IMG/VR virus record: IMGVR_UViG_3300048503_000086
Source of the DNA: a virus
Lineage: Duplodnaviria > Heunggongvirae > Uroviricota > Caudoviricetes
DNA: 64,000 bases
Reading direction: 5' to 3' (one strand)
In this document: piece after piece, positions 4,871 through 64,000 of the stretch
How positions within the stretch are numbered: position 1 is the first letter of the stretch
Layout: each line of letters opens with the position of its first letter
Made by a program: the position numbers and the translations under genes
Notes under the pieces: model-generated
The model's input: the letters and a program-made list of their open reading frames with translations, nothing else
Database searches by the model: none
What the model was told of the DNA's origin: nothing

Positions 4871-4878
4871 CACACCTC

Positions 4879-5433: not shown

Positions 5434-5436
5434 CGA

Positions 5437-5700: not shown

Positions 5701-5709
5701 CCCCGCGGA

Positions 5710-8073: not shown

Positions 8074-8113
8074 CGGACCCTCCAGCCCTCGTGCTTGCTT
8101 TCAGTCATGGCGG

Positions 8114-9216: not shown

Positions 9217-9219
9217 GGT

Positions 9220-10221: not shown

Positions 10222-10224
10222 GGG

Positions 10225-29148: not shown

Positions 29149-30012
29149 TTAAGAGTTGCAAAACGACCCTTTCTGGTTTTCCTCTTCGATGTCTTTTATC
29201 AACGCGGCGTCGTCAATCTCAGCCATCGCCCAGGCCAGCGCCCGGGTAGCCAGCCCGTTGACCCCAGCCTCAAACATTCTGAGGATCATCGCATTGATCT
29301 GCTCTTTGGTGCGGCGAAACCGGAAGCGACGCTTGTACGTTTCATCGAGTCCCGGCAACTTGCCGCTCGATCCCCGCCGCCGGGCCTCCGCCGTTTTCTC
29401 GGCAAGGAACAACTGCTCCTCCGGCGCTTCCTTGTACAGCCGCTCGATCGAGACCTGCGACAAGAGGCCGTTGGCAGCCATCTCTTGGATTTCGACCGGG
29501 AGATCCAGCAGCCGGAAGCGTGCCGCAATCCACTTCGTGGGCCGATGCAATTCCTTATTGGCCTGCCGAAGCGACACGCCGTCAGGGTACAGACGCTTGA
29601 GCGCGATGGCCTCTTGCAGCATGTTCAGGTCTTTACGCTCCAGATTCTCCGTGAAGTTGAGCAGGCGGGCCTGGTAGTCCGTCAACTCGTGTCGGACCAT
29701 CGCCGGAATGTTTGCCCACTTCAGAAAGAACTCGACCGCTCGAAATCGCCGGTGGCCGGCAATCAGGCGATAGTCAAAACCCGAAGGCACAGTGCCCACG
29801 ACCTCGACCGTGGGCTGCACCACGACGGGAAAATCGAGGCCCCTTAGCTCGACACCCCCTCCCTTTTGGCGAATGCTCTCGGCCAATTCCGAGACCGACT
29901 CCAGCGTGAACTGCCCTCGGCAGTTGAAATCGGCATCGTAGTAGATGCGGCTCAACGGCAGAGCGAACACGTCATATTCCTGGAGTCTCTCCGCCACCGG
30001 CCGTCTCCCCAA
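29149..30012 (-). CDS. ParB/Spo0J-family protein
   Basis: YRLIAGHRRFRAVEF (the GHRRxxA ParB box) plus a downstream HTH region. Confidence 0.75.
   Translation of the reverse strand: MGRRPVAERLQEYDVFALPLSRIYYDADFNCRGQFTLESVSELAESIRQKGGGVELRGLDFPVVVQPTVEVVGTVPSGFDYRLIAGHRRFRAVEFFLKWANIPAMVRHELTDYQARLLNFTENLERKDLNMLQEAIALKRLYPDGVSLRQANKELHRPTKWIAARFRLLDLPVEIQEMAANGLLSQVSIERLYKEAPEEQLFLAEKTAEARRRGSSGKLPGLDETYKRRFRFRRTKEQINAMILRMFEAGVNGLATRALAWAMAEIDDAALIKDIEEENQKGSFCNS
29151..29181 (-). promoter_or_regulatory. Copy 6 of the conserved motif. It overlaps the stop codon of the upstream parB-like gene.
   Basis: tAAGAGTTGCaaaacgaccctttCTGGTTttc. Confidence 0.5.
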
Positions 30013-36639: not shown

Positions 36640-39600
36640 TCAACGCCTTCCATCACTTCGCCCATCGTCATCAGCTCCAGCTTCCGGTTGGCGCGGATCA
36701 CGTCGAGCACGCGGCCGTCGCTCGGCAAATGGATCAGATCGACGATGGTGCAGCCCAAGTTCATCGTCCATGCCCAATGCGATGGATGCGGTCCTCGCTC
36801 TGGTGCGGTATTCCGGCTTATAGGAGTTGGACCAGTAGACCGCCATGCGGGCCTCCACCAGCGTCAGGCTCATGCCGCCCGACTCGGGATTGGCCACGAA
36901 GGCAACCGCGATGGTTCACCTCCCTGTTGGCCCAGTAGTCCAGCGGCTCTTCCGTCACGGGCGAGTCATGGGCTGTCGTGCGGCAGGACTTGGAAGTTGC
37001 CCTGGTCGCAGCGCACCACGTCCCACTTTTCCTTCACACAGCTTGACGATGCGATCCACCGAGCCGGTGAAGCCGGCGAACACCACGATGCGGCCCGTCT
37101 CCTCGTTCTCGTCCAAGAGCATCTTCAGGCGGCGTCCTTCGGGCAGGCAACCTCGCGGGTCGTGCGGACCATCTTGGCACTTCCTTCGTGCCGCCGCACG
37201 CGGGCAGGCACCGTCTGCTTGACCAGCCGGGCCTATGACCTCTTCCGGGAGCAGATCGATGCCGGGATAGACGTGGCTCCGGGTCTTCCGGGTCCAGCCA
37301 GATCCGTCACCGTGCCATCCGTGCAATGCGTGCAGCGGGTCATGCCGTCCTGCTGCCTCGCGGTACTGGAAGCCGTCGCTCAGCTCGCGCAGGAGGTCAT
37401 GCCCGTCACGGCGTTGGGTGCCGCTTCCACAAGGGCCTCGGCCACGCGCAGTGTGCTGGCGGTCGGCTTGCAGACGATCTTGCGGTATCGCTTCTCGGGC
37501 AGGTCAGGCAGTCCTTCTTGTGCTTGATGACCACCAGCCCTTGAGCCGTTCGTAGAGGTAGGCGACCTCGTTCTTGCTGGGCGTGAACGGTGGTACTCGG
37601 GGTCGGTCAAGCCGTCCAGTTCGTGCGGCCCCTCCTCACGACGTCTCGCCGCACTGGCGCATTTCCGATTCGTCGTCCTTCCAGCCGATGCGCTTCTTGA
37701 AGGCCGGTCGTCGAATTGCTGATCGACCATGAAGGCCAGCCGCTCTTCCATCGCCCGGCGGCTGCCCTCGCGCAGGAAGCCGGGCCAGGCGATCTCGCAC
37801 TGGCTCCACCAGTCCACGGGCGTCTTGGGCGACGGCGTGCCGGACATCTCGATCACGTAGCCTGCTCCAGGCCGTACTTCTCGCGGATCATGTCCGCGAG
37901 CTTTGGCAGGCGCGGGAGCGCTGCGAGGTGTCGTTCTTGCACCGGCTCGATTCATCGCCACGAAGGCCGTGCGGGGCAAGGTCTGCGAGCCTCCCACTCG
38001 TCCATCACGCGGACCAGCCCCTCGTAGGTGAAGAACTCGACCTGGAATGCGGTCGAAGGGGAACCCCACATGCGGAACTCGCGCTTGATGTTCGGCAGGC
38101 TGGTCTTCGGGCCGCCCAGAACCAGATCGACGCCCGACTTTCTCGATCACCTCTTGGGCCGGCCAGGGTCTTGCCGGTGCCCATTTCGGCCGCCGAAATC
38201 TGGTAGTGGTAGGTCAGGCCGGCATCGGCCAGGTCCATTTGCATGTCTGCGGCATCAGCGGTCAACGGCCGGTACTCGTGCCGCACCAGCGGCCGGTCGA
38301 ACCAGGCGTAACACGTCCTCGCCGCAGAGATAACCGATCTGGAAGCGGTTGCGCTGGCAGTCGTCCACCGACCAGACCTTTGATCTTGGCGTACTCGCCC
38401 TCGTCGTCGTAGCCGTGGAAGTGCGCGCCGCGCATGGCCTTGACTTCCGCCATCAGCCCATAGCGCGTCTTCGTGCCGACTCTTGCCGTCCCAGAAATAG
38501 ATGCGGCCGTCCTTCTTCTCCAAGGCGACCGGCACGCGAATCCGCGTGCCGCTGGATGTCTGGGCCTCGACTTTCACGGATTCAAGCGACATGCAATCTG
38601 AGGCCTCGGGCGATCTCGCAGTTATGCTCGTCAACTCGACGCCGATCGAGCGGCGGCCGAGCCGCTGGGCGGCCAAGAGCGTGGTGCCGCTGCCGGCAAA
38701 CGGGTCCAGAATCACGCCGCCATCGGGGTCGAAAGCAGCGTGAGCAGAGTATTCCATCAGGGCCAGCGGCTTGACCGTGGGTGGTCGTTGCCTCGTCCCG
38801 CGCTCCTTCCGAGTCGCCTTGGCACAGTAGAAGAACCGGCTCGCTCCGCCTGTGTCGCCGTAGCTCACCTGAACGTCGCCGGCCTTGCCGAGACCGCCGT
38901 GATAGCCGTCGCCGGACTTCGTGCGGACGCAGTTGGTGCCGCTGGTGAGCGTGCCGGTCTGAGCATCCAATTGGCGGCGGCCTCTTCGTCCAAGAGCAGA
39001 TTCGCCGGCCAGCGGCCCGGACTCATGAACTGGGCCCCTTCACGGCGACCGCTTCGATGCTCGACTCAGCCAGCTGTTTGCCGTCAAGCTCGTCCCGTTC
39101 CGCGCGTTGTACTTGTAGCCGGGGTTTCGCCGATGCGGGAGGCGTCGATGTTCATGCCCGCCACGCCCCAGGTCAGGGCGTTGTGGGCAATCGTGCCGTC
39201 CAGCGGCTTCATCGCCAGGACGATTGGCTCCCAGGCCGGCTTCAGGGCCATCGCCCAGCCGGTCCACCTCGCGGCCTCGGGAGTGGCCGGGGCGGTTATC
39301 TGCGCGGCGCGAAGCCGAGCGTCCGTGCCGGGGGCATGGAGTCCGTTGCCGCCGCCGTAGCACCCGTTCCCCTTGCCCTCGTGCAAGTGATAGCCGGGAC
39401 GGTCCAGCTTGTCGCCAATGACCTCGCGCTCCGCGCCTTTCGACTTGTCGATCAGCTTGCCGATGTCGCCGCACTTGGGCATCCCCTGCCCATAGAGCCA
39501 CATCAGCGCGTCCCGAATCTCCCAGCCGGCGTCTTCGATTGCACAGTCAGCCGGTGATAGGTCCGCGTGCCGCCAAAGGCGAGCAAGAGCACCGGGCTTG

Positions 39601-39792
39601 CACACGCGGGCAATGGCCCGCCAATACTCGGGTCCGGGAACCTCGTGGTCCCAGTCCTTCTCCATGAAGCTGAGTCCGTAGGGCGGGTCCGTCACCACGA
39701 AGTCCACCGCACGCCTCGGGCAAGGCCGGCAGCACATCGCGCAGATCGCCGTCGTAGAGGGCGATGTTGCCGTCTGTGTGGTAAGGTCTCAA
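36640..39792 (-). pseudogene. Remnant of a large fusion of a beta-class DNA methyltransferase with an SNF2-family helicase (resembling the P1 anti-restriction protein DarB), broken by several frameshifts
   Basis: Pieces in different frames: MRPYHTDGNIALYDGDLRDVLPALPEA | AVDFVVTDPPYG...NIDASRI | SRFFYCAKA...HPTVKPLALMEY...ILDPFAGSGTT | AAEMGTGKT (helicase motif I) | MSGTPSPKTPVDWWSQ (SNF2 motif III region) | LLDENEETGRIVVFAGFTGSVDRIV (helicase C). Confidence 0.5.
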
Positions 39793-40752: not shown

Positions 40753-41493
40753 CTAGCGGGCGCGGGCCTTCTTGCCCTCGGGCTCCTTCACGGTCTCGAC
40801 GCCATCGCCCTTGCAGTTGATGAACCGCGTGATCTCCTTCACGATCTGGTCCTTCGAGGGCAGCTTGGGGAACGGCTGGGCGCACTTCACGATGACGGGC
40901 ACGTGCCAGGAATACGTGCCCTTCTCGACGAGCCGGCTCTTGAGCGTCAACGGCAGCGGGCCGTGGGGCTCCAGGTCGGCGACATCGTTGCCAGCGGCCT
41001 TCTGGCGGGCGATGTCGGTGGCCGTCAGCGGCAGGAACGGGTAGACCTTCTTGGCTTCGCTCCGCGTGCTCTTCGTGCCGCAGAAGAACTCCAGGAAGCG
41101 GTTGGTGCTCCGCTCGTAGACGAGGAAGCTGGGGCCGTACATGCAGTGCGACTCCTTTTCCAGCGACTGCGCCGCGATCCGCTTGAACTCATCCGACTCG
41201 GGATCGTAGTTGACGATCAGGGCGTCGCTGTCGGTCATGTCGATGGCCTTCGGCCGGCGTGCCAGCGGGATGATGTGGATGGTGTCGGTCAGGTCGGCGA
41301 CCTCTTCGCCATCGGGAATGCCGTAGTGGCCGGGGCGGACCTGGCCCTTGTTGACGGCCTTGCCCTTGGTGTACAGTTGCAGGCGGCCGATGAAGTCGGC
41401 GCTCTTGGCCAGTTCGATGAACTGATCGTCAGTTCCGAGCTGGGTGGAGGGAAGTTGCGCAAGATCGACGGGGACCAGCGAGCTGTCGGACAT
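40753..41493 (-). CDS. Hypothetical protein (246 aa)
   Basis: ORF track. Confidence 0.5.
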   Translation of the reverse strand: MSDSSLVPVDLAQLPSTQLGTDDQFIELAKSADFIGRLQLYTKGKAVNKGQVRPGHYGIPDGEEVADLTDTIHIIPLARRPKAIDMTDSDALIVNYDPESDEFKRIAAQSLEKESHCMYGPSFLVYERSTNRFLEFFCGTKSTRSEAKKVYPFLPLTATDIARQKAAGNDVADLEPHGPLPLTLKSRLVEKGTYSWHVPVIVKCAQPFPKLPSKDQIVKEITRFINCKGDGVETVKEPEGKKARAR

Positions 41494-41585
41494 GAGTGTG
41501 CCTCAGAGTTGAAACGAGAATAGGGGCGTGGACAGGAACAGGAAAAGCAAGCTGCAAACGCGGCCGGTGATGACAGGGTGTTACT

Positions 41586-42494
41586 TCATGGTTCGGTCTC
41601 CTCGGTAAAGTGCCTCCTCATACGCTCCCGTAGCTTTCCTCTCTGCTCTTCAAGACTGTTGGCGTCGAGGTGCATGATCCACTCCAGGCAGGCGTTCCAA
41701 CCGTCGACCGCCGTCCGTGCATTCCTGGCGGCAAGCATCATGGGCCCGGCATCGGGTCTTTCTTTCTCGGCCAGAACTTCCCGCAGGTTGCGAAGGTGGG
41801 CGACGGGCGTGAACTCGTTGTTGAACAGCACGTCCAGCTTTCCTTGCCGCGCCGCCTCGCGCTGCTGCTTAATGAAGGCAGCGACCGTGACCTTGAACAC
41901 GTGGACGGGAGCCGTCCTGGCAAGATCAAGAAACCGGTGCTGTTGGCTGCGAAGGACGCGAGACAGCACGTAGCCCGACATCAAAGGGATCTCCCCGCGG
42001 TCCACGGCCTTCTGCACCTGGGGTTGCAGACGCAGGAGACCCAGTTGCTCTCCGATCCAATGCGGACTCTTGTGGATCAGCCCTTGTAGTCGCGCGTGCG
42101 ACATGCCGGGGTTGGCGTCCAGGATCTTCTTCAACTGCCTTGCAAAGTCGGTTGCCTTGGTGGTCGGCCGTATGGCATTGGCTTGAATCTGCGCGGCCAC
42201 AACCATTTCATCGGTCATGCCGTACCGGACCAGGCAGGGCACAGGCGATAGCTCCAACTCCTGGTAAGCGGTGTAGCGGTACATGCCGTCCACCACTTCC
42301 CACTTGCCGGGAAAACGGGGCGAGGGCCTGACGCAGATCGAGTTCAGCGGGCCGTTGGCCGCCAGCGAGTCTCGCAACTCGATGTACTCCAGCGACTCCT
42401 TTTCCACCAATCGGAGCAGCAGGCGGGTCTCGTGGATGTCGCAGAGCGGAATGTCACGAGACTCGATCTTCACGGTGGACTCCGGGATCAACAA
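41586..42494 (-). CDS. ParB-like nuclease-domain protein
   Basis: ICVRPSPRFPGKWEVVDGMYRYTAYQELEL (ParB/Srx-like N-terminal domain). Confidence 0.7.
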   Translation of the reverse strand: MLIPESTVKIESRDIPLCDIHETRLLLRLVEKESLEYIELRDSLAANGPLNSICVRPSPRFPGKWEVVDGMYRYTAYQELELSPVPCLVRYGMTDEMVVAAQIQANAIRPTTKATDFARQLKKILDANPGMSHARLQGLIHKSPHWIGEQLGLLRLQPQVQKAVDRGEIPLMSGYVLSRVLRSQQHRFLDLARTAPVHVFKVTVAAFIKQQREAARQGKLDVLFNNEFTPVAHLRNLREVLAEKERPDAGPMMLAARNARTAVDGWNACLEWIMHLDANSLEEQRGKLRERMRRHFTEETEP

Positions 42495-42496
42495 CT

Positions 42497-42590
42497 ACAC
42501 CTACAGGAGATGTCAAAAACGGGCGGTTTTTTCAGAAAAGGGGCACCGTTTGTGAAAAAAACACTCGTATCTGACATCTCCTGTAGGTGT
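42497..42590. repeat. Perfect 19-bp inverted repeat (ACACCTACAGGAGATGTCA / TGACATCTCCTGTAGGTGT) flanking a 56-bp AT-rich spacer, in the divergent intergenic region
   Basis: Read directly from the sequence. Confidence 0.7.
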
Positions 42591-42630
42591 AGCTATGCCA
42601 CCGACTTCCACGCCGGCTCTCAGCGCCGGA

Positions 42631-42695
42631 AAGCGTGTAAACGCATCTATCGGGGCTAGACGATCCTCTCTCAAGAGCGTGTAAACGCATCTATC
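42631..42695. promoter_or_regulatory. Two 20-bp direct repeats (AGCGTGTAAACGCATCTATC) spaced about 46 bp, each with internal dyad GCGT-N4-ACGC. Candidate operator or iteron sites next to the primase gene.
   Basis: Read directly from the sequence; lies just upstream of the plus-strand operon start. Confidence 0.5.
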
Positions 42696-42703
42696 AGCCC
42701 ACA

Positions 42704-43399
42704 ATGAAAACAAGACCCATCCCTCCGCTCACACGCAAGGAAATCAACCGATTCTGGTTGCGTGTTGAAATTAGTGGACCTGACGAATGCTGGGAGTGGC
42801 AAAGAAGGAGAGACGACGATGGCTACGGGCTCATAAAGTTCCGCCACAAAATGTTCCGGGCACATCGAGTGGCATTCTTTCTTACCTTTGGTCAGCCGAT
42901 ACCCGACCTGCTCATTTGTCACAGTTGTGATAATCCGGGATGCTGCAATCCGAGACATCTTTGGCAAGGCACGGCAGCAGACAACAATGCTGACCGCAGT
43001 AGAAAGGGCAGAACGAAAAGGCAGCTCGGCGAAGAGCACGGGCTGACAACACTCACGAACGCAATGGTCACTCAGATCCTATTATCTGACGCAACACAGG
43101 TGGCTCTTGCCGGACAGTTCGGTGTCTCCTGTACGTCAATCAAGAACATTCACTGCGGTCGAACATGGGCCAATGTAGCACCTGACACTGCACGCCGGAC
43201 GGTAGGTAGACTGCCATCGCACACCTGTCGCGGTGAAAAGTGCCACACGGCCAAGCTCAAGGCCAGTGACATCCCGCTGATTAGGTCGTCAAAAGAAACA
43301 AACTGCCATCTCGCCGCACAATTCAATGTTTCGGATGTCGCCATCAGCTACGCCCGTAATGGCAAGACCTGGAAGCACGTCGTACAAGGAACGCCATGA
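42704..43399 (+). CDS. HNH endonuclease with NUMOD-like repeats
   Basis: ECWEWQRRRDDDGYGLIKF...HSCDNPGCCNPRHLWQGT. Same HNH type as the domain inserted into the methyltransferase at 5710-6984. Confidence 0.8.
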   Translation: MKTRPIPPLTRKEINRFWLRVEISGPDECWEWQRRRDDDGYGLIKFRHKMFRAHRVAFFLTFGQPIPDLLICHSCDNPGCCNPRHLWQGTAADNNADRSRKGRTKRQLGEEHGLTTLTNAMVTQILLSDATQVALAGQFGVSCTSIKNIHCGRTWANVAPDTARRTVGRLPSHTCRGEKCHTAKLKASDIPLIRSSKETNCHLAAQFNVSDVAISYARNGKTWKHVVQGTP

Positions 43400-46116
43400 A
43401 AGTCACTGAAGCCATCAAAGTCTTCCTCAACGCCAGGAAGCTGCCCGCCAACGCCGATCTGGTTGCGCGCTGGAGCGCCTGCATGGAGACCCAACTGAAT
43501 GTCGCCGCGGGCAATGGCGAGCCTGTCGAAGGCAAACGGACGACCTACAGCGATGGGATCAATGAATGGTGGAACATTCGCCTGCCGAAGAACGCCAACA
43601 GCGACCCATCCTGGGACGACTACGAGCTTCGATTTCCATTCGAGCTTCACGCCGAGGGAATCGGGTGTACGGGCTGGGACTGGGCAGCACGCCGATCTCG
43701 TTGGTGCGCGTTTGATTTTGACAGTCTCACCACGCACGCCAGGGGCATCGGCGTTACCGACGAGGAACTGGAGAAGATCAAGCTGGCGGCCGAGGCCCTA
43801 CCCTATGTTGAGACCAGGTTGAGTACGGGCGGAAAAGGCATCCACCTCTATTGCTACTTTGATGACGCCGGCGTCCCCACAGACAACCACACCGAGCACG
43901 CCGCCCTGGCTCGCTGTGTACTGGGAATGATGTCTTCGGACACCGGCTTCGACTTCGCCTCGCAGATCGACTGCTGCGGAGGGGTCATGTGGCTGTGGCA
44001 CCGCAAGATGACCGCCGAGAATGGCGGCCTGTCTCTCGTGAAGCCAGCCACCAAGACGCTCTCCGTCTCCGGTCTGCCGGCCAATTGGCACGATCACATT
44101 GAAGTCGTGACCAAGAAGCGGAGCAAAGTGCGTGTAAACGAGGTGGCCGAGGACGACCTTGACCCGTTCGAGGCCCTGGCAACATCCCGCAAGATCATTC
44201 CCCTGGACGACGGCCACAAGGCCCAGATCGAAAGCCTGATGCGGTCCGGCTTCACCACGCTTTGGATCGCCGACCACCACCTGCTCCAGACGCACACCTG
44301 CGCGCTGGCCAAGCTGATGGGCGAGGCTGACCTGAAGCTGGTCGGCTACTTCCACACCATCTCCGAAGGCAAGAATCCGGGGTCACCCAACTGTTTCCTC
44401 TTCCCGCTCCCCAGCGGGGCCTGGAAGGTCTACCGCTTCTCGCCCGGGATCGCCGAGGCCGAGACCTGGACCCAGGACGGCAACGGGTGGACGACCTGCT
44501 ACTTCAACCGCACACCGGACCTTTCCGTCGCCGCCAAGGCCCACGGTGCCCTCGAAGACCCAGACAAGATAGGCGAGTTCGTATTCCATGATGCTGCAAG
44601 GGCTCTGGAGGCGGCCGAGGCCCTGGGCCAGAAGATCACCCTCCTCGACGAGATGATGGACCGCGAAACCCGGCTCAAGTCCGGCAGGGACGGCCGGCTC
44701 GTCGTCGAGATCGAGAAGAGAGAAGAAGACGCCCCCATGCCGGGGTGGTTCGCCAAGAAGGGCAAGTGGTCTCGCATCTTCGACGTGAAGACCGACTCCA
44801 AGAAGTCCGACGAACTGGGCTTCAGCGAACACGACAACGTTCTCCGCGAGCTGGAGACCCCGGCTAAGGAATTCGCCGGCTGGGTCATCCACAAGGGCGG
44901 CGAGTGGGTCCGCGAGCCGCCGGCCAACGTGAAGATGCTCTTGCAGAGCCGCGGTTTCGACAAACCCGAGGCCGAGGCCATCATGGGCGGCGCGATCGGC
45001 AAGAGCTGGCGGCTGGTGAACCTGCCCTTCCACGAAGAGTATCCCGGCGGCCGGCAATGGAACATGGACGCCGCCCAGTTGCGCTATGAGCCGGCAATTC
45101 TGGGCGATGAAGAGCAGCCGAGCCACGCACATTGGGACAAGGTTCTCAACCATATCGGCCAGGAGTTGAACGCCGGGCTCCGTGAGTCGCTCTGGGCGCA
45201 GAAGGCAGGAATGAAGACGGGGGCTCAGTATCTATTGGCCTGGATCGCCTGCATGATCCGCTACCCTTTCTCGCCGCTGCCCTACCTGTTCCTCTACGGC
45301 CCGGAGAACAGCGGCAAGTCGATCTTCCACGAGGCCATCGCCCTCTTGATGACCAAGGGCTGCGTGCCGGCCGACCGGGCGTTGACCAGCGCCAGCGACT
45401 TCAACGGGGAACTGGCCAACTGCATCCTGGCGGTCGTCGAGGAAAAAGACATCTCCAAGGCCAAAGGGGCACTGGCCAAGATCAAGGAATGGGTCACGGC
45501 CCGCAACCTGTCCATCCGCAAGATGCGGACCGACAGCTACACGCAGCCCAACACGACCCACTGGGTCCAATGCGCCAACCGCCGGGAGAACTGCCCCATC
45601 TTTCCCGGCGACACGCGGATCACCGTGATCCATGTGCCGGACCTTCTGCCGGACCAGGAAATCCCCAAGGAGAAGCTGATCGAGCGTCTTACGGAAGAGG
45701 CCCAGCACTTCATGTACAGCCTGATGAACATGGAACTGCCGGAGGTGGTGGGGCGGCTGCGGCTCCCCATCGTGATTACCGACAGCAAGCTGCGGAGCGA
45801 GGAAGACAACCGCGATGCGTTCGAGGAATTCCTTGCCGACAACTGCTTCGAGGCCCCGGGGGCCTTAATGCCTTTCAAGGACCTGTTCGACAAGTTCTAC
45901 GAGTCACTGACCGTGAACGAGAAGGGCGAGTGGACAAAGCAGAGGGCGATCAAGAAGCTGCCCTCGCGGTTCCCCACGGGAAACGGTCCCGGCAACAAGA
46001 AGTATGTTGCCAACATCTCCCTTGAAGAAGTGACCTCTCCCGACGCAAAGCCCCTTCTGTACTTGGAGGGCAAGTTCGTTACACAGCCGCAAGAGCCACC
46101 GGAGGCCCAGCCATGA
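43396..46116 (+). CDS. DNA primase/helicase (prim-pol N-terminus with D5/P4-type SF3 helicase)
   Basis: 906 aa; Walker A LFLYGPENSGKS; N-terminal primase-polymerase-like region. Confidence 0.8.
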   Translation: MKVTEAIKVFLNARKLPANADLVARWSACMETQLNVAAGNGEPVEGKRTTYSDGINEWWNIRLPKNANSDPSWDDYELRFPFELHAEGIGCTGWDWAARRSRWCAFDFDSLTTHARGIGVTDEELEKIKLAAEALPYVETRLSTGGKGIHLYCYFDDAGVPTDNHTEHAALARCVLGMMSSDTGFDFASQIDCCGGVMWLWHRKMTAENGGLSLVKPATKTLSVSGLPANWHDHIEVVTKKRSKVRVNEVAEDDLDPFEALATSRKIIPLDDGHKAQIESLMRSGFTTLWIADHHLLQTHTCALAKLMGEADLKLVGYFHTISEGKNPGSPNCFLFPLPSGAWKVYRFSPGIAEAETWTQDGNGWTTCYFNRTPDLSVAAKAHGALEDPDKIGEFVFHDAARALEAAEALGQKITLLDEMMDRETRLKSGRDGRLVVEIEKREEDAPMPGWFAKKGKWSRIFDVKTDSKKSDELGFSEHDNVLRELETPAKEFAGWVIHKGGEWVREPPANVKMLLQSRGFDKPEAEAIMGGAIGKSWRLVNLPFHEEYPGGRQWNMDAAQLRYEPAILGDEEQPSHAHWDKVLNHIGQELNAGLRESLWAQKAGMKTGAQYLLAWIACMIRYPFSPLPYLFLYGPENSGKSIFHEAIALLMTKGCVPADRALTSASDFNGELANCILAVVEEKDISKAKGALAKIKEWVTARNLSIRKMRTDSYTQPNTTHWVQCANRRENCPIFPGDTRITVIHVPDLLPDQEIPKEKLIERLTEEAQHFMYSLMNMELPEVVGRLRLPIVITDSKLRSEEDNRDAFEEFLADNCFEAPGALMPFKDLFDKFYESLTVNEKGEWTKQRAIKKLPSRFPTGNGPGNKKYVANISLEEVTSPDAKPLLYLEGKFVTQPQEPPEAQP

Positions 46117-46280
46117 CGATCCTGGTCTACAAGATCACCGGCAGGCACACCCGCTCGATTGCGACAGCGACCCTCGTGGATCAAGTCGAGACGGGCAAAA
46201 TGCCCGACGACCAGATCGCGTTCGCTGAAGAACACGGCGGCGACTTCATCGAAGTGGCCGCAGAAACGGCAGGTGCTTGA
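46113..46280 (+). CDS. Small hypothetical protein (55 aa)
   Basis: ATGA overlap with the primase stop. Confidence 0.4.
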   Translation: MTILVYKITGRHTRSIATATLVDQVETGKMPDDQIAFAEEHGGDFIEVAAETAGA

Positions 46281-46522
46281 TGGCACAATTCATCCCGCAT
46301 GGCGGCGCGGTGTATGAAGTCCGCGCGGTGTTGGACATCGGTGACCTGCAACAGTTCGTCGGCGGCTTCGTGCGGTTCTTGGACATCGGCTTTGGGAACC
46401 ACGTCGTCTGCCACGAGGATGCTGAACTCGTCTACAGCAAGAACGCGCTGGCATCATCCCTATCCCAGCGGCCCGTTCACGGGCCTGCGATCATCTGTCG
46501 AATGAAAGAACTGGAGCTATGA
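46280..46522 (+). CDS. Hypothetical protein (80 aa)
   Basis: TGATG coupling; MAQFIPHGGAVYEV... Confidence 0.45.
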   Translation: MAQFIPHGGAVYEVRAVLDIGDLQQFVGGFVRFLDIGFGNHVVCHEDAELVYSKNALASSLSQRPVHGPAIICRMKELEL

Positions 46523-46977
46523 TGAAGTACAACATGACCGACAGCGGCAAGCGGCAGCAATTCGGCAGCAACCTCGCCATTCGAGACACGGCGGACGACA
46601 AGCCGCGCCCCGATCTGATCTCGCCTTTCGCCGAAGAGCGCCAGGGCCAATGGCTCCGCATGGGGGCCGCCAAGTATGCCGAACGCAACTGGGAACGCGG
46701 AATGCCCTTCACCCGCTGCGTCGCCTCGCTCAAGCGACACGTCATGCGATACCAGCAGGGCAAACGCGACGAGGACCACCTGGCCGCCATCATGTTCAAC
46801 GCAATGGCCCTGATCCACTACGAGGAGATGATCGAGCGCGGCCTGCTCCCGTCCGAACTGAACGACATGCCAGTCTACGGCAAGCCGGCGGCCAAGAAGA
46901 ATAAGAGCCGTCGCAGGCCCGCGGCCATGAAGAAACACAATCCGCGCAAGCCGGCCTCCCCCCACGAAGAGGCGTAG
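46519..46977 (+). CDS. Hypothetical protein
   Basis: 152 aa with a basic C-terminal tail. Confidence 0.5.
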   Translation: MMKYNMTDSGKRQQFGSNLAIRDTADDKPRPDLISPFAEERQGQWLRMGAAKYAERNWERGMPFTRCVASLKRHVMRYQQGKRDEDHLAAIMFNAMALIHYEEMIERGLLPSELNDMPVYGKPAAKKNKSRRRPAAMKKHNPRKPASPHEEA

Positions 46978-47018
46978 GTGAGTCCTACATGGCTTTGCCC
47001 GCATAGGCATCGGAATTC

Positions 47019-50243: not shown

Positions 50244-50492
50244 TTACTCGGTGGCGCTGTCCGGCACGCTGGCCACGCCGGCGGCCTCGTTGACCTTCTG
50301 GCTGACGGGCTTCCAGCCGTCCTGGCCATAGACCTGAGCCTGGTCCCGCTCGGGAACCTGCCCCGTCGCCTTGTTGTACTCGTTGAGCGACTTGGCCATC
50401 GCCACGTCACGGTCCGTCTGGTCGCCCGTCGCGCCCTGGGCCTGGATCAGCACGGTGTCGGGGCACTTGCCCAAAGTTCCGATGTTCTGCAT
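50244..50492 (-). CDS. Small-protein paralog 4
   Basis: MQNIGTLGKCPDTVLIQAQGATGDQTDRDVAMAK... Confidence 0.45.
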   Translation of the reverse strand: MQNIGTLGKCPDTVLIQAQGATGDQTDRDVAMAKSLNEYNKATGQVPERDQAQVYGQDGWKPVSQKVNEAAGVASVPDSATE

Positions 50493-50578
50493 CTTCGTAC
50501 TCGCTTTCTGAAACAGAGAAAACAACACAACACAAACGGAAGCGGACCTACATCGGCCCACCTCTCACTCGCACTACG

Positions 50579-50758
50579 CTACTTCTTGCGATGCTTGGCG
50601 AACTGCGCCAGCCGCTTGGCCAACGCAACCTGCCGGTTGGTCGTCGCATCCTTGTGGGGCTTGGCCTCGAACTGGGAGAGCGTCATGCCCGCCGCCTTGG
50701 CCTTCGCCGTCAACGCCCCGGGGTGCTTGATCGCCCCCTGAATCCACTTGTCAGCCAC
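50579..50758 (-). CDS. Small basic protein (about 60 aa)
   Basis: GTG start preceded by AGGAGG. (V)ADKWIQGAIKHPGALTAKAKAAGMTLSQFEAKPHKD... Confidence 0.35.
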   Translation of the reverse strand: MADKWIQGAIKHPGALTAKAKAAGMTLSQFEAKPHKDATTNRQVALAKRLAQFAKHRKK

Positions 50759-50781
50759 GAGATGCCTCCTTCACGAAAAGG

Positions 50782-53700
50782 TTAGTAAACGATCGCCGAA
50801 ACCAGGGACGCAACAGTGCTCGCGTCGGTCTGAATTGCCGTGAACTGGGCCGAATTCAGCGTGACTCCCCACGCCTGAGACACAAAAGGCGCGATGAGAG
50901 TCACGGTACTGGCCATGCCGAGGGCCAGGTTCGACACGTCGGCCGCCAACCGGGCAACGTCCGTCCCAAGCCGAGTGGCCGCCGTCACAATCGCAGTCGT
51001 CGAGCCTACCGAGATGCCGCGCACCACATTGGCCACGGCATCCAGTTGCACGGTCGCTGCCGATCCCGGCACGTTGTAGAGGTAGTCCGACATGGCGGGT
51101 GTGTACGCGGCCTCGGCCTTCGCAAGATCCATCTTCAGGGCATACGTCGCGCTGGTGTTCGTGGGGTCGATCACCGGGGCACCGACCTGGCCCAGGCTAA
51201 AGAAATCCCCCAGGTAGCCAAAGTTCTTGGGACCGGGATTCTTGCTGTCCATGATCTTCGTCGTGGAAAGGTCGATCACCACGCTCACCGGGAGCGGGGT
51301 GTCGGAGATCACCGACTCCTCCAAGTAGTCCAGGGCCAGATCCAACAGCGCAGGCGTTCCCACGGTGTAGCTGGTATACTGGTTGGGAAGGACCACCGGC
51401 TGTGCCGCAAAACCCGTGTCCCCCGGCGTGGGGTCGCCCCAGTCGGGATGGGGACCGAAGATCACGTTCGGGCCGCCGACAAAGACCCCCTGGGCGATAG
51501 GCCGCACGCCGCCGGCGGGCACCGTCGAGCCGTTGCCCGTCAGGCTGCCGTTGGGGCCGACCGGGATGTAGTAGCTCGCCGAGGGCAACTGGCCGACCGG
51601 AAGGAGGCCGTTGGCGTTCATGCCGATGCCGCCGCCCCCGAAGCCCACCGTCTCCGTCACCGAGGGCGGCCAGGTGGTCGTGGTCGGCAAGGCCGAAGGC
51701 CAGTAGTAGGGGAACTGGACCATCGCCCCGGCGTTCACGGGGCACTCGCACTCGAAGTCGATGCTGTTCTCGGCCGAATTGTAGGCGGCCTTCTGCACCA
51801 GCACGGGCACGGCCGCCGAAGCCACCGCCCCCGGGACATCAAACGTCACGCAGTCGAAGGTCTCCAGGTTGAGCTTGTTCAAGAACGCGCGGAACCTGAT
51901 CCGCTTCCAGATCATGGAGTAACGGATGAGCCAGAAAGTGGCCATCTTGAGGATGATGTCCGGCTGATTGAAGATCCACCAGTCGTAGTCCTTCTCCCAG
52001 AGCCCATAGCGCGAGACATTGTGCCGCAAGACGATCAACTGCTCCTGCTGCTCTCCCGGCTCGGGGGCGTAGCCCATCCGCCACTTGACGTTCATCTTGG
52101 TGACCAGGTTCTCCGTGTCCGTGGAGGCGATCTCCATGCCGTGCTCGGAGTCGATGTCGCTGACGGTGATCGTGTCCACCGGCGTGGGCTCTTCCGGCAG
52201 GTAGGTGAGGTAGACCACCTCGTTCTCGATCCAGATCGCACAGCGGCACTGGAAGGCGATGTCCTTGAGCACTTGCAGCACATTCTTGCGCTCCAGCAAG
52301 GGGAAGTTGGCCGGGAAAGGGGCCAGCATCGTGCGGCAGTGGTTGAAGGAGGTCGCGTCCCAGGTGAGGTCCGTGTAGTTCTCGATCAGGTACTCCAGGA
52401 TGTCCACGATGTTCGGGCCGACCGACGACTGGAATGTGACGTAAAGCTGGTCCGACCAGCCCGTGATCCAGTTGCTGTTCAAGTCCTGATAGACCATCAG
52501 GGAGAGCCGCTGCTGGAGGACGATCTGCACGGCCGTAATGCTGCCGTACTGGACGGTCTCGACCGTGTACCAGCTCGGCGGCACCACGTTCAGCACCCGC
52601 TGGCCGTTGACCGTCTGGAACGCCTTGACGCAGAGCACCTGGCCGGGCACGATGGAGGCGATGAAATTGCAGCCCTGGTTGACGCCCAACTGGACCTTGG
52701 CTCCGGCGTCCGCCCAGAACTGCTTGGCGGTCAGCGTCGGCGGCTTCACGATGGGGTTGGTGGGCACCGTGAGGATCACGACCGCCTCGTCCAGCACGCA
52801 GGGGTTCGGAGCCGCAGGGGCAGCGCCGGGGGTGATCGGCACGCCCAAGGCGCTAGTCATGCTCAGCGTGCCGGTGGCGACCTCCGTGTTGAAGTTGATA
52901 ACATCACCCAGGCTGCCGCAGGGGATGTTGGCGGTAAAGTGCAGCGTGGCCGCCGGCGGCGGATTCAGCAGCGGGCAATCAATCAGGTGCTGCGCCGCCT
53001 TCAGTTCCGCGTTGGCCACTTCCAGGTTGTAGCGCACGATCACCTGCGGGTCCTCCGCGGAGGCGATCGTGAAAAGCTCGCCCTGGAACGACCCCGTAAG
53101 GTAGGCGCTGCCCAGGGTGATCTGAACTTGCTGGTTCTGCGGGAAGTCCTCTCCTCCCAGGATGTGGATCGGATTGGCCCCGGTATACCCGGCCAGCTCC
53201 GACAACTGCCGGGCGCGGGTAGCCAACATGCAGGCTTCCTTCTTGTTCAGCAGGAATTCCTCGTTGGCCATCTGGTTGGAAATCGCCTGGGCCATCTCCC
53301 GGTACTGCTGGTACTGGACAGGGTCCACGTCCTCCCAGAGGTCGGCCGCCTGGTTGTAGACGTTCAACTGCTGGCCCTGCTTCCAGAGGCCGAACAGCGT
53401 GGAGGGGTCGAAATCCGTGCCGTTGGCGTACAGCGGCAGGATCTCGCCGGTCCAGGTCACGAACCCCACGGGGTCCAAGGTCACGCCCTCGATGGCCATG
53501 TTGACTTCCAGGGCGGCGTAGTCGATGACCTCGCCGAAGACCATCGGCCAGGGCTTGCCGATCATCTCGCTGGGGATGTAGGGAAAGCTGCCCTCCTCCA
53601 CCGAGAAGCCGACTTCCAGGTTCTCCAGCGGCGAGACGATGGTGACCTTCAGGGTCCGGTCGCGCTCGTTCCAGGTCACCGGCGTATTGATCCGCCCGGC

Positions 53701-54048
53701 GAACACCAGGAACTTGTCGGACAGATCCAGCCCCGTGAACCACTGATAGATGCGGACGTGGACGTTGTAGATGTCGTAGGCGTCGAAGATCGCCTTGAGC
53801 GATCCGTCCGTATCGTCCAGCGTCAAGGCCACCTGCGCCGAGCTGCCGTTGAAGGCGAGGTCCAGCACGTCGTCCAGGTCGCCCAGGTCCACGATCTTGC
53901 CGGGGATGGGCGGTGGCCCGGGAAGATCCCGGTCGGCGTAAGACTGCGTGGCAGCACCCTTGTACCAGTCGATCTCGACGATCGAGATCGGCTCAGTCCC
54001 GTACTGGGCGGCGAGCTTGGCCAGGCCGTTGCTGGAAATCGTTCGCAT
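50782..54048 (-). CDS. Large tail protein (1088 aa; host-specificity / central tail-fibre-like)
   Basis: Size, position between the tail-fibre genes and the tape measure, and the motif-8 copy in its 5' leader. Confidence 0.65.
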   Translation of the reverse strand: MRTISSNGLAKLAAQYGTEPISIVEIDWYKGAATQSYADRDLPGPPPIPGKIVDLGDLDDVLDLAFNGSSAQVALTLDDTDGSLKAIFDAYDIYNVHVRIYQWFTGLDLSDKFLVFAGRINTPVTWNERDRTLKVTIVSPLENLEVGFSVEEGSFPYIPSEMIGKPWPMVFGEVIDYAALEVNMAIEGVTLDPVGFVTWTGEILPLYANGTDFDPSTLFGLWKQGQQLNVYNQAADLWEDVDPVQYQQYREMAQAISNQMANEEFLLNKKEACMLATRARQLSELAGYTGANPIHILGGEDFPQNQQVQITLGSAYLTGSFQGELFTIASAEDPQVIVRYNLEVANAELKAAQHLIDCPLLNPPPAATLHFTANIPCGSLGDVINFNTEVATGTLSMTSALGVPITPGAAPAAPNPCVLDEAVVILTVPTNPIVKPPTLTAKQFWADAGAKVQLGVNQGCNFIASIVPGQVLCVKAFQTVNGQRVLNVVPPSWYTVETVQYGSITAVQIVLQQRLSLMVYQDLNSNWITGWSDQLYVTFQSSVGPNIVDILEYLIENYTDLTWDATSFNHCRTMLAPFPANFPLLERKNVLQVLKDIAFQCRCAIWIENEVVYLTYLPEEPTPVDTITVSDIDSEHGMEIASTDTENLVTKMNVKWRMGYAPEPGEQQEQLIVLRHNVSRYGLWEKDYDWWIFNQPDIILKMATFWLIRYSMIWKRIRFRAFLNKLNLETFDCVTFDVPGAVASAAVPVLVQKAAYNSAENSIDFECECPVNAGAMVQFPYYWPSALPTTTTWPPSVTETVGFGGGGIGMNANGLLPVGQLPSASYYIPVGPNGSLTGNGSTVPAGGVRPIAQGVFVGGPNVIFGPHPDWGDPTPGDTGFAAQPVVLPNQYTSYTVGTPALLDLALDYLEESVISDTPLPVSVVIDLSTTKIMDSKNPGPKNFGYLGDFFSLGQVGAPVIDPTNTSATYALKMDLAKAEAAYTPAMSDYLYNVPGSAATVQLDAVANVVRGISVGSTTAIVTAATRLGTDVARLAADVSNLALGMASTVTLIAPFVSQAWGVTLNSAQFTAIQTDASTVASLVSAIVY

Positions 54049-54102
54049 GGCAAGACCTCAAACGTGCGATGGGGACGTGCAATGGGCGCGAGGCCCCGCT
54101 AT

Positions 54103-54133
54103 AAGAGTTGCAAGAACGGCGGAACTGGTTTCC
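54103..54133 (-). promoter_or_regulatory. Copy 8 of the conserved motif
   Basis: tAAGAGTTGCaagaacggcggaaCTGGTTtcc, 55 nt upstream of the ATG at 54048. Confidence 0.5.
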
Positions 54134-54151
54134 AGAATTCCGCGGACGCCT

Positions 54152-54556
54152 CTAGGCGGTTTGCAGCACTCCCTCGAATTCCAGCTCAATGGCCTGTTCC
54201 TCCCCGCGAAGCAAGGGCGGCCGTGCAGGGGCACCTCGTTCGGGGGTGTCAAGCTCGAAGGGATTACTGGTGAAGTAGCCGACCCAGTTCCGCCCCAAGT
54301 GGTCCAGCACGTAAATCTTCGAGGCGAAGTAGGACTGGATGAAGGCCCGCAGTTCCAGACCCTTGTTGCGAGTCAATTGGAAGGTCCACTTCAGCCTCCG
54401 CCGGCCGCCCTTGGTCTTGACGTAGGTCCGACGTGTGCCATCCATCGCCCGCTTCACGATCACCGCATCGGTCAGGTTCATGGCATCGCTGAACTTCGGC
54501 TCGGGGAGAACCGTCAAGGTCTGCAACGTCGGATAGGGGGCTTGGAGATAGAACAT
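54152..54556 (-). CDS. Tail-associated hypothetical protein
   Basis: 134 aa. Its C-terminus resembles the C-terminus of 54578-56176. Confidence 0.5.
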   Translation of the reverse strand: MFYLQAPYPTLQTLTVLPEPKFSDAMNLTDAVIVKRAMDGTRRTYVKTKGGRRRLKWTFQLTRNKGLELRAFIQSYFASKIYVLDHLGRNWVGYFTSNPFELDTPERGAPARPPLLRGEEQAIELEFEGVLQTA

Positions 54557-54577
54557 GATCGACTCCCACTGCTGAGC

Positions 54578-56176
54578 CTACGACACCAGTTGACCCTCAA
54601 ACTCCAAGCCAGCCGTGAAGCTGTACTTGCTGTCTTCCACCACTGGGTCATTGGGATTGGTGATGACACCGACCCAGTAATGGCCTTCCCAATCCGACAG
54701 GCCGATCTCCAGCCCGATGTGGTTCAGCATGAACTCCAGCAGGGCTTCGGCCTGCGTGGGCGTGAGCGCGGAAAAGGTCAGCACCAGGGTCTCCGTCTTC
54801 GGCCACATGGGGTCCGCGTAGACGATTAGCGTGCCGCCTCGCGTCTCGCGGCAGATGCGGTTGAACTGCAAGCGATCCTTGTTGCCGAACTCCGGGTCGC
54901 GCAGCGCCAGCGTGTCCGTAGCCGTTCCCGTGGATGGGTAGACCAGGGTGAAGGTCCCCGGTGCCGCCAGGTTGGGACCGGCCAAGGTGGCCGCGGGCGG
55001 CGTGGGATTGCCGGCCGTGCCCGCCCCGATGAAGGGTCGATAGTCCCTCTTCACCAGTCCAAAGGGCAGCGTGTAGCTGAAGGACTGCTCAATGACGATG
55101 TTGTCCTCGGCCGACAACAGCCGCACGACCACCACCGAGGCCCGGTCGCCGATGGTCAGCGGATCGGTGGTCGGCCTGCCGACGGCGACCAGAGCCATGT
55201 CGCCCAATTCAATCGCGTCAACGACATCGGGCGAAGGGCTCTTGACGGCCGCATCACTGAGGCTGAGGGCGTCCGTTGCCGCAAGCGCGATCGCCGTAGA
55301 ACGGATGACGCCGACCTGGATCGACTCGCCGAAGGAGAGCCGATCGGTTACGCTCTGAGCGCTGTGCCAGATGACCTCCGAGTTGCTGTCCTGCAAGCCC
55401 GTGTAAACGGTCCGCGAGACATTGTTCGTCGAATCCCAGACCTGGTCCGACGTTTGCAGCACGTCCACTGCGCCGGCGTAGATCGGGCCGATCTCATTGG
55501 CCGCATCGGCAATGCCAATCGCATCGGTGACCTGGAGGCTCCAGTGTTTCTGCTGCCAGACGGCCGTCGAATCCTGGACAGGTATCTGGTCGATCACGTC
55601 CAGGTGCTGGCTGGTGTCGTGGCCGGCGGCCGTATCCACCAGCGACAGCACGTCGGTCGCACCGGCCTGGATCACAGGGTTGGAGCCGGCCGCCGTGTCC
55701 GCCAGCGACAGCATGTCAGTCGCGCCGGCGTGGATCACAGGGTTGAAGCCGGCCGCCGTATCCGCCACCACAATGAAATCGGTGGCCTGCGGGCTGCCTA
55801 TTTTCTGGACCGTCGCACTCTGGGAGACCGTCAGCGGATCGGTGACATTCTTGCCGCTCGGGCCGATGGCATCCTCATGGAGCGACAGGCTATCGGTCGC
55901 ACCGACGATGTAGACCCAGGCAGATTGGGCCTGGTCCGCAACCGCCAAGGCGTCGGCCGCCGTCCGTGAGGCGACATGACACACCACAGCTTGATCGCCG
56001 AGCGAGAGAGCGGAGAGGGTGGAGCGAGCGGCAGCGTGCCCGACGTTTGCGGCATCGTTCAACGTCAGGGGATCTAGGGCGCTGGCGGTGTGCGCACTGA
56101 CCACCGTGTCCTGACCAAGGACAATGTTGCCCAGTTCCGCGTTGGCGACACCCAGCCGGCCGGTAGTTGCAGCCAT
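54578..56176 (-). CDS. Tail protein with internal tandem peptide repeats
   Basis: Repeats of about 20 aa: ...AGATDMLSLADTAAGSNPVIQAGATDVLSLVDTAAGHDT... Confidence 0.6.
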   Translation of the reverse strand: MAATTGRLGVANAELGNIVLGQDTVVSAHTASALDPLTLNDAANVGHAAARSTLSALSLGDQAVVCHVASRTAADALAVADQAQSAWVYIVGATDSLSLHEDAIGPSGKNVTDPLTVSQSATVQKIGSPQATDFIVVADTAAGFNPVIHAGATDMLSLADTAAGSNPVIQAGATDVLSLVDTAAGHDTSQHLDVIDQIPVQDSTAVWQQKHWSLQVTDAIGIADAANEIGPIYAGAVDVLQTSDQVWDSTNNVSRTVYTGLQDSNSEVIWHSAQSVTDRLSFGESIQVGVIRSTAIALAATDALSLSDAAVKSPSPDVVDAIELGDMALVAVGRPTTDPLTIGDRASVVVVRLLSAEDNIVIEQSFSYTLPFGLVKRDYRPFIGAGTAGNPTPPAATLAGPNLAAPGTFTLVYPSTGTATDTLALRDPEFGNKDRLQFNRICRETRGGTLIVYADPMWPKTETLVLTFSALTPTQAEALLEFMLNHIGLEIGLSDWEGHYWVGVITNPNDPVVEDSKYSFTAGLEFEGQLVS

Positions 56177-56212
56177 GTTATCACCTCACCCGGGTGTCGA
56201 TAAAGGAGGCCA

Positions 56213-57868: not shown

Positions 57869-57877
57869 GCACCTCGC

Positions 57878-60456: not shown

Positions 60457-60530
60457 TGCGTCACCTGGGGAAAAGCGGGCCGGGGGCCGGTTGGAAGGCC
60501 GGCCCCCAACCCGGCGAGGGAGAGATCAGG

Positions 60531-61151: not shown

Positions 61152-61177
61152 GGTGAACCTCCTTCAAGGATTGATTG

Positions 61178-63996: not shown

Positions 63997-64000
63997 TGCT

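Follow-up and report, generated by a model that had tools for sequence, protein, structure and literature searches.

The replication protein of the archaeal plasmid pRN1, ORF904, joins a prim/pol domain to an SF3 helicase, and an adjacent 100-nt stem-loop is required for replication, with the integrity of the stem being important (PMC4234260). The structure of this stem-loop is conserved among the pRN plasmids whereas its sequence is not, and even though the element is required, no specific binding to it could be shown (PMC4234260). A similar stem-loop lies beside the equivalent replication gene of phage BIP-1 (Bordetella BIP-1/BPP-1) (Berkner et al. 2014, PMC4234260). Here we describe a locus of related layout in a 64,000-nucleotide stretch of DNA from a virus of the class Caudoviricetes (IMG/VR record IMGVR_UViG_3300048503_000086; this whole stretch is called the window below), in which a 98-bp near-palindrome lies between a leftward ParB-like gene and a rightward block that contains the gene for a predicted PrimPol-SF3 helicase, referred to here as the primase (Table 1).

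The locus resembles pRN1 and BIP-1 in that its predicted replication protein, an AEP prim/pol joined to an SF3 helicase of ~900 aa, has a self-complementary neighbor of about 100 nt (98 nt here, upstream of the primase gene), and in that the sequence of this neighbor is poorly kept among relatives while its complementarity is kept, with a spacer of 110-280 nt in ~10 of them. It differs from both in its position, upstream and within a divergent promoter region, whereas theirs is downstream. Other differences are that perfect pairing is confined to the outer 14-29 nt, that some relatives have their arms as much as ~280 nt apart, and that the hosts are bacteria of the Planctomycetota. The literature on Planctomycetes promoters or phages yielded nothing usable.

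SaPI origins have oppositely oriented iterons to the left and right of an AT-rich center, and each side is believed to receive one hexamer of the self-loading Rep helicase (PMC9371898). As in SaPI and PICI elements (PMC9371898), the repeats described here are opposed around an AT-rich center, lie beside primase/helicase genes and are element specific, and one of the relatives is itself satellite-like. SaPI origins carry 6-12 short (5-6 nt) iterons directly downstream of rep, an arrangement that we did not find at this locus, where a single arm of ~20 nt stands on each side and upstream of the gene. Inverted initiator sites that flank or adjoin an AT-rich segment are also found in the palindromic origins of viruses with an origin-binding helicase of their own, such as the SV40/polyomavirus core origin, the papillomavirus E1 site and herpes simplex virus (HSV) OriL and OriS, in all of which the spacing of the half-sites is fixed; OriL and OriS in addition lie between divergently transcribed genes. 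Our locus shares the inverted sites and the AT-rich segment with these origins but has no DNA-site homology to them, and its spacing varies widely.

A near-palindrome at the point where transcription diverges

The first-pass annotation of the window had described a perfect 19-bp inverted repeat with a 56-bp spacer, set in a control region between diverging genes, immediately 5' of the replication genes. The spacer length and the setting were borne out, the direction of the genes switching at this point, and the inverted repeat is indeed present, but its perfect arms are 21 nt long (42495-42515 and 42572-42592) rather than 19. The spacer is itself partly self-complementary, so that a repeat finder extends the arms to 47 nt with 85% complementarity around a 4-nt center. 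Perfect symmetry is nevertheless confined to the outer arms, the center being asymmetric with 3- to 8-nt loops and internal bubbles. Folded as a single strand, the element reaches -59.9 kcal/mol on the plus strand and -64.6 kcal/mol on the minus strand (z = -9.7 and -12.0, respectively), and none of 200 shuffled sequences was as stable. It is also the lowest-GC 100-nt stretch of the window (43% vs 61%), and the two 21-bp arms stand in opposite orientation around an AT-rich core of 56 bp. From the 3' end of the palindrome there are 111 nt to the ATG of the HNH endonuclease gene that follows in the window and, in the relative L001, 73 nt to the primase ATG.

The arms are not self-palindromic and are found at this single locus: allowing up to 3 mismatches, the arm 20-mer has just these two sites in 64 kb, with 0.00 expected from shuffles. 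Apart from these arms, the window contains a single perfect inverted repeat of 15 nt or more, a 37-bp palindrome at 18515-18551. An Rfam search of the window at the gathering threshold returned no family, and a tRNA search of the window found none.

Conservation of the inverted arms among relatives

A megablast search with positions 41000-47000 gave no match among cultured phages, and tblastn with the primase against the same phages gave only matches to the helicase part, at no more than 31% identity, with no annotated relative. Related primases are encoded at 20 loci in IMG/VR, with identities between 98% and 43%, and a collection of species-representative genomes provided 30 further loci, mostly in metagenome-assembled genomes (MAGs) of Pirellulales, Thermoguttaceae and Planctomycetaceae. 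The primase locus of L001 lies on a 113.8-kb contig, while that of L022, whose primase is 98% identical to the window's, is located in a 699-kb Pirellulales contig. The gene order is widely conserved among the relatives, with g40753 and the ParB-like gene on one side of the intergenic region and the primase, MazZ-like and exonuclease genes on the other. The best explanation of the region is a control center that acts in cis within the replication module of a Planctomycetota phage, or prophage, of ~114 kb; it would combine three components of separate origin, namely the palindrome, a single dyad and an HNH gene insertion.

An inverted arm pair occupies the intergenic position between the ParB-like and primase genes in ~35 relatives, comprising Planctomycetota phages, prophages and one satellite-like element, and the palindrome therefore passes the test of conservation in related phages that had been set beforehand. 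In more than 20 lineages the perfect arms are 14-29 nt long and 9-94 nt apart. In ~10 further relatives, among them contigs assigned to Opitutales, to Bacteroidetes and to a Methanomassiliicoccales MAG, the arms measure 17-44 nt, are perfect or 76-93% complementary, and are 110-280 nt apart. Elsewhere in all of the loci (582 kb) and the window there are only about a dozen perfect inverted repeats of at least 15 nt, mostly short-loop hairpins.

Within a genome the arms are identical, and between lineages they are on average ~50% identical. Read outward, they share a common plan in which a T-rich or TTGG block is followed by 8-10 variable nt and then by TRTA and GG(TG). Interior pairs also recur among the relatives, either TTTTYCA with TGRAAAA or TTTCCC with GGGAAA. 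In some of the more than 20 relatives the plus strand has the more stable fold and in others the minus strand, with no consistent advantage for either, and the perfect arms contain no G-T pairs despite the extensive turnover of their sequence. An RNA stem under selection is expected to show both wobble pairs and a strand preference. The lack of either argues that the element acts as DNA rather than RNA.

The arm pair does not depend on the ParB-like gene. In L029, tblastn found no ParB-like gene within 6 kb and the arm pair still stands beside the primase gene. In L032 (Lacipirellula MAG NZ_CBDIIC010000001.1, 3400-10530), the genes run from a prohead protease and a capsid protein through the palindromic units to the primase-helicase and a tyrosine integrase, and this locus looks like a capsid-encoding phage satellite of Planctomycetes. 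It carries three palindromic units with a period of ~200 nt and a fourth, wider unit; again there is no ParB-like gene within 6 kb by tblastn, and the upstream genes are codirectional with the primase gene, so that the left arms face no gene. The persistence of the arms in these two loci links the palindrome to the primase and not to ParB, and the ParB-like protein, which had been put forward as a candidate binder, can no longer be regarded as an obligatory one. Taken over all relatives, the comparison of sequences leads us to conclude that the palindrome is a conserved, functional DNA-level cis-element tied to the PrimPol-SF3 helicase gene.

Two observations on other loci deserve mention. The layout of ParB-like gene, inverted repeat and primase gene is kept in L033, L035, L039 and L049, contigs that were binned to Opitutales, Izemoplasmatales, Bacteroidetes and a Methanomassiliicoccales MAG; either the module has spread across phyla or these are phage contigs that were misbinned. 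The closed chromosome OY970289.1 has two primase copies (L030 and L031), and at L030:8808-8915 a 24-nt arm pair surrounds an AT-rich segment of 60 nt. This pair lies 156 nt downstream of the primase gene, near an integrase gene, and each arm is itself palindromic (TGTCGGGGTAGTTACCCCGACA); whether it is equivalent to the other arm pairs is uncertain.

The primase-helicase as candidate initiator

The helicase part of the primase matches the PDB chains 6k9c and 6k9e, both named "Primase" (E ~3e-9), whereas its N-terminal 350 residues fall into no family detectable by sequence. The motifs DxD and sGxGxH are invariant throughout the primase family, which has more than 750 proteins in public data. 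The helicase match and these invariant motifs lead us to assign the protein as a fusion of an AEP PrimPol with an SF3 helicase, built like pRN1 ORF904. When relatives whose arms differ are compared, its C-terminal 100 aa and residues 460-600 vary most, although relatives that share the same arms are closer overall anyway.

The PrimPol segment (43396-44445) has its nearest solved structure in cyanophage S-2L, a phage with 2-aminoadenine DNA, and the gene is adjoined by a MazZ-like dATP/dGTP diphosphohydrolase domain (dGTP_diPhyd_N, 4e-19) at 46519-46977. No family of the PurZ type (adenylosuccinate synthetase) was found among the window open reading frames (ORFs) scanned, and the MazZ-like domain and the S-2L-like PrimPol give only a hint of modified genome DNA.

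A proposed origin-type loading site, or possibly outward-facing promoters

We tentatively favor the interpretation that the palindrome is an origin-type site for loading of the PrimPol-SF3 helicase and for melting of the DNA, overlapping the divergent early promoters. One PrimPol-SF3 helicase complex would load per 21-bp arm, and the loaded helicases would then open the 56-bp AT-rich center, possibly aided by extrusion of a hairpin or cruciform, in line with what has been put forward for the pRN1 stem-loop and for SaPI origins. Since the palindrome lies inside the stretch from which both divergent early operons must be transcribed, origin and promoter/operator functions probably overlap at this site. 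GC and AT skew were also considered as markers of an origin but were uninformative, as the skew tracks the direction of transcription, including that of the minus-strand block at 50-64 kb.

Several observations weigh against an origin. Among the relatives the arms are separated by as little as 9 and as much as ~280 nt, which is hard to fit to a fixed double-hexamer geometry or to a simple hairpin, and where the spacer is long each arm is near one gene start, as for independent promoter/operator elements. The core of the arms, TRTA followed by G(G), lies 11-30 nt upstream of the ParB-like start and resembles a promoter or transcription-start region, and in the window the left arm ends just 21 nt from the ParB-like start codon. 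The rare mismatches between the two arms of a genome fall at positions that vary between lineages (position -3 in L002 and position +2 in L025), which fits two sites under the same constraint better than it fits base pairing. The origins of pRN1, BIP-1 and SaPI are all downstream of the rep gene, and the primase homologues of L031 and L040 have no comparable repeat nearby, that of L028 only a doubtful one. The main alternative explanation, to which we give less weight, is that the arms are only twin outward-facing promoters or operators, one for each operon (ParB-like; HNH/primase), recognized by a coevolving element-specific factor such as a repressor, an activator or a dedicated polymerase, and that the palindrome results from the proximity of the two genes. 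The site is the point at which transcription diverges, and as the left arm ends so close to the ParB-like start, the ParB-like mRNA must begin in or beyond the palindrome. The plan of the arms, a T-rich block, 8-10 variable nt and TRTA followed by GGTG, resembles the promoters of single-subunit polymerases, several lineages would have 5' leaders of 11-30 nt before the ParB-like start, the arms remain beside both gene starts at separations of 175-280 nt, and the mismatches sit at positions that tolerate variation. On the other side, a scan of 42300-42900 on both strands found no sigma-70-type promoter (-35/-10 with 16-18 nt spacing), although this consensus may not be that of Planctomycetota, and the arm motif is not reused in 64 kb with dozens of genes. 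A Pfam scan of ~75 window ORFs at E <= 1e-3 detected no sigma factor, RNA polymerase, repressor, integrase, invertase or protelomerase family, so that the phage sigma factor invoked in the first-pass annotation finds no match either. Transcription alone would also leave the three to four complete palindromes of L032 unaccounted for, given that they lie between codirectional genes and their left arms have no gene to serve, and it does not call for an interior that is symmetric too and forms the most AT-rich 100 bp of the window. Promoters in the arms are, moreover, compatible with an origin at the same site, and the two readings do not exclude each other. Attempts to fit sigma-54 or extracytoplasmic function (ECF)-type spacing to the arm blocks by eye failed. 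A promoter for a phage-specific polymerase was set aside as a separate candidate and is kept only as part of the transcriptional explanation: no other gene of the window is preceded by the core TRTAGG(T)G, and TGTAGG is if anything antisense biased.

The remaining explanations all appear improbable, to different degrees. An RNA-level hairpin in the 5' leader of either mRNA (ParB-like or primase), serving as an RNase III site, a stabilizer or a source of small RNA, would agree with the very stable folds of both strands, with a hairpin that abuts the ParB-like ribosome-binding site and with arms that change between lineages yet stay complementary. We nevertheless consider it improbable, given that neither strand is favored energetically across more than 20 relatives, that the perfect arms are free of G-U pairs despite being ~50% identical between lineages, and that the arms stand 110-280 nt apart in several relatives; the sole match of an Rfam E-value search of 42400-42760 was a generic plant microRNA-precursor hairpin model, which scored 33.6 bits where the gathering score is 95. 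Proteins of the ParB family bind palindromic sequences close to their own genes, and the palindrome here lies beside a gene with ParB_N and HTH_ParB domains. Even so, a centromere-like or operator site of the parS or KorB type for the adjacent ParB-like protein is about as improbable as an RNA hairpin: such sites are compact palindromes of 13-16 bp, usually in several copies, the arms are not 14-16-bp palindromes, the element is restricted to a single locus in 64 kb, and it does not strictly co-occur with the ParB-like gene, persisting without it in L029 and L032. Adjacency itself counts for little, since the window has two further ParB-like genes elsewhere. Very improbable, finally, is a substrate for recombination, either a site for resolution of hairpin telomeres or a promoter segment that can invert. 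The long inverted repeat and the 175-280-nt spacers of some relatives do resemble the geometry of invertible promoters, but spacers of 9-57 nt are too short for inversion, telomere resolution sites are most symmetric at the center whereas the palindrome is asymmetric there, and the ORFs scanned, which come from 64 kb of ~114 kb, include no protelomerase, invertase or integrase family.

Whether the origin-type reading extends beyond this phage is more doubtful. It is conceivable, though on balance unlikely, that the arm pair serves for origin recognition in a very large and mostly uncharacterized family of PrimPol-SF3 helicase replicons, made up of the more than 750 proteins and spanning Planctomycetota phages, prophages and a satellite-like element, with relatives binned to Verrucomicrobiota, Bacteroidota and other phyla sharing the layout. 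If so, the long self-complementary origin of the pRN1 type would be a general rule for this class of initiator, and the arms would be kept identical in each genome either via gene conversion, with extrusion of a hairpin, or by coevolution with the variable C-terminal part of the protein. The dozens of natural variants in arm sequence and spacing, each with its own protein, form a specificity series for binding and replication assays, and a minimal replicon of palindrome and primase could provide Planctomycetes, for which genetic tools are scarce, with the backbone of a vector.

Direct repeats and the inserted HNH gene

Downstream of the palindrome, the two 20-bp direct repeats with GCGT-N4-ACGC dyads that had been noted in the first-pass annotation are present, at 42632 and 42676. 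The 20-mer AGCGTGTAAACGCATCTATC occurs twice (42632-42651 and 42676-42695) with 100% identity and 44 nt from start to start, and there is no third copy in 64 kb at up to 3 mismatches, with 0.00 expected from shuffles. With a unit of ~20 bp, an internal dyad, a distance of 44 bp (about four helical turns) and a position upstream of a replication gene, the repeats look like the iterons of an origin or like an operator array. Unlike such arrays, they number two copies only and are restricted to the genome that bears the HNH gene, the relatives having one.

L001, L022 and L152 are nearly identical to the window on both sides and lack the HNH gene; the primases of L001 and L022 are 98% identical to that of the window. 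In all three a single copy, GCGTGTAAACGCATCTATC, stands 11 nt before the primase ATG and is followed by AGGGAAGCGAA and the ATG, and in ~15 more distant relatives one dyad is found in the same place. We could therefore find neither three or more repeats nor a repeat number conserved among relatives, and we rejected the idea that the direct repeats are iterons or form a tandem array of operators. Of the operator/iteron architecture that had been proposed for the region as a whole, the layout of the palindrome still fits an origin and/or operators, while the direct repeats no longer contribute to it.

The HNH ORF differs in composition from its neighbor, with a GC content of 53% and a GC content at third codon positions (GC3) of 56%, compared to 62% and 83% for the primase gene. 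Compared to the HNH-less relatives, the ParB-like gene of the window is mostly 94-100% identical and the palindrome exactly 100% identical in L001, whereas identity drops to ~62% over the last 90 nt before the insertion. On the other side, the first 500 nt of the primase gene are 80-91% identical in four of five 100-nt bins and 95% in the other, and beyond these identity is again mostly 94-100%. Foreign composition, presence and absence among close relatives and divergent flanks together argue that the HNH gene is a recent insertion of a free-standing homing-endonuclease gene, with divergent flanks brought along.

Free-standing homing-endonuclease genes are familiar from phages, for example as the seg and mob genes of T4 and as intergenic insertions of the I-TevI type. 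The HNH gene of the window resembles these in being a separate ORF between conserved genes, in its polymorphic presence and foreign composition, and in having divergent flanks as in coconversion. It departs from usual homing in that the insertion would here have duplicated 20 bp of leader or operator. The same slot is occupied in L023 (primase 62% identical), where a 40%-identical HNH_3 gene has its stop codon overlapping the primase GTG and a single dyad upstream (L023:5160-5835). The slot between the dyad and the primase start is thus a recurrent landing site for HNH genes.

None of 74 other HNH homologues from viral contigs has the dyad motif, which shows that the motif belongs to the primase leader and not to the HNH cassette. 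An exact search of metagenome contigs with the 20-mer gave no match; with the 19-mer, the same search found L152, which is HNH-less and has one copy, and the unrelated L151, which in a collection of this size probably matched by chance. We conclude that the direct repeats very probably represent a lineage-specific duplication of a single operator-like dyad at the insertion of the HNH gene, and not iterons. The HNH gene would have inserted between the dyad and the primase start codon, taken over the primase leader and become translationally coupled to the primase, and the same event would have duplicated 20 bp including the dyad, giving rise to the apparent direct repeat. The stop codon of the HNH gene overlaps with the primase ATG (ATGA), and the stretch between the second repeat copy and the HNH ATG shows no Shine-Dalgarno sequence. 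A direct repeat upstream of a replication gene can accordingly be the scar of a homing-endonuclease insertion rather than a set of iterons.

A single dyad near the primase start

In ~15 lineages a single GCGT-n-TA-n-ACGC stands downstream of the palindrome and before the primase ribosome-binding site, in the variants GCGTGTAAACGC, GCGTTTATACGC, GCGTATAAACGC and GCGTTTACACGC. The dyad is symmetric at 10 of 12 positions, its two variable positions are asymmetric, and its stem positions never covary. With such a noncovarying stem and asymmetric variable positions, the dyad looks like a protein-binding site rather than an RNA hairpin. This single 12-bp dyad, a few nucleotides upstream of the ribosome-binding site, may be an operator-like site for a putative dimeric DNA-binding protein.

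A further copy, covering more than half of the dyad, lies inside the primase gene (Table 1), 735 nt from its start, in a gene with a GC3 of 83%. It is kept in L001-L004, and in L013 the internal copy is GCGTATAAAC, matching that genome's own upstream variant, while other clades have CGC ATC or CGC GTC at this position and no internal copy. The sequence GCGTGTAAAC(G) occurs five times in the window (10401, 27364, 42633, 42677 and 44130), always on the plus strand, with 0.04 expected per strand. The sites at 10401 and 27364 are further copies of GCGTGTAAACG, and of the relatives examined only about half retain the copy that lies in the polymerase gene. In another Planctomycetia element, the 10-mer GTTTACACGC/GCGTGTAAAC occurs in intergenic pairs 21 nt apart (L036:3555-3600 and 4364-4398; L047:5130 and 5544), which suggests that the predicted dyad binder is more widely shared or host encoded.

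Gene neighborhood

The features of the region are collected in Table 1. The ParB-like gene heads the leftward block; its probable start is the GTG at 42473, with GGAG at 42483-42480, and this start is supported by alignment of its N terminus, MKIESRDI, from residue 1 in L001-L003. The rightward block consists of the HNH_3 ORF, the primase-helicase, the MazZ-like diphosphohydrolase and an RNase_T exonuclease, in this order. According to codon-position GC analysis, nearly all ORFs at 1-42494 are on the minus strand, those from 42704 to ~49850 on the plus strand and those at 50244-64000 on the minus strand again. The window also encodes a family A DNA polymerase, a ligase, many methyltransferases and tail-like proteins.

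Table 1. Features of the intergenic region and of the flanking genes (window coordinates)
Feature	Position	Strand	Remarks
ParB-like gene (ParB_N + HTH_ParB)	41586..42473	-	Pfam ParB_N 8.7e-07, HTH_ParB 9.5e-04; PHROGs ParB-like
Near-palindrome, 98 bp	42495..42592	n/a	Conserved cis-element; proposed origin-type loading site inside divergent promoter region
Left perfect arm	42495..42515		Outward (minus) reading TGACATCTCCTGTAGGTGTAG; end 21 nt from ParB-like GTG
Interior, AT-rich, imperfectly symmetric (T6CAGAAAA ... TGA7)	42516..42571		Candidate DNA-unwinding region
Right perfect arm	42572..42592		Outward (plus) reading, same sequence as left arm
Direct repeat copy 1	42632..42651	+	Holds 12-bp dyad GCGTGTAAACGC at 42633-42644
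Unique spacer between repeat copies, 24 bp	42652..42675	+	Absent from HNH-less relatives (alignment with L001)
Direct repeat copy 2	42676..42695	+	Dyad at 42677-42688; ends 8 nt before HNH ATG
HNH_3 endonuclease ORF, free-standing	42704..43399	+	Pfam HNH_3 5.4e-07; PHROGs HNH endonuclease 1e-31
Predicted AEP PrimPol + SF3 helicase (DUF5906), 906 aa	43396..46116	+	Candidate initiator acting on the palindrome
Internal dyad half-plus copy GCGTGTAAACG	44130..44140	+	In primase gene, rare codons GTG CGT GTA AAC

There are three separate ParB-like genes in the window, at 41586-42473, 29149-30012 and 19086-20060. The last of these lies ~0.5 kb from the 37-bp perfect palindrome at 18515-18551, AACTGTGCAGGTGCTCAA-A-TTGAGCACCTGCACAGTT, which is a candidate parS or operator. 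An unusually large number of ORFs are of DNA methyltransferase type (N6_N4_Mtase, MT-A70, Dam, D12 class and others), among them 5710-7137 (minus strand), 16939-17865, 20591-21472 and 39084-39737. One N6_N4 methylase ORF contains an HNH_3/His-Me finger segment at residues 269-313, which may be a second HNH insertion or a fusion.

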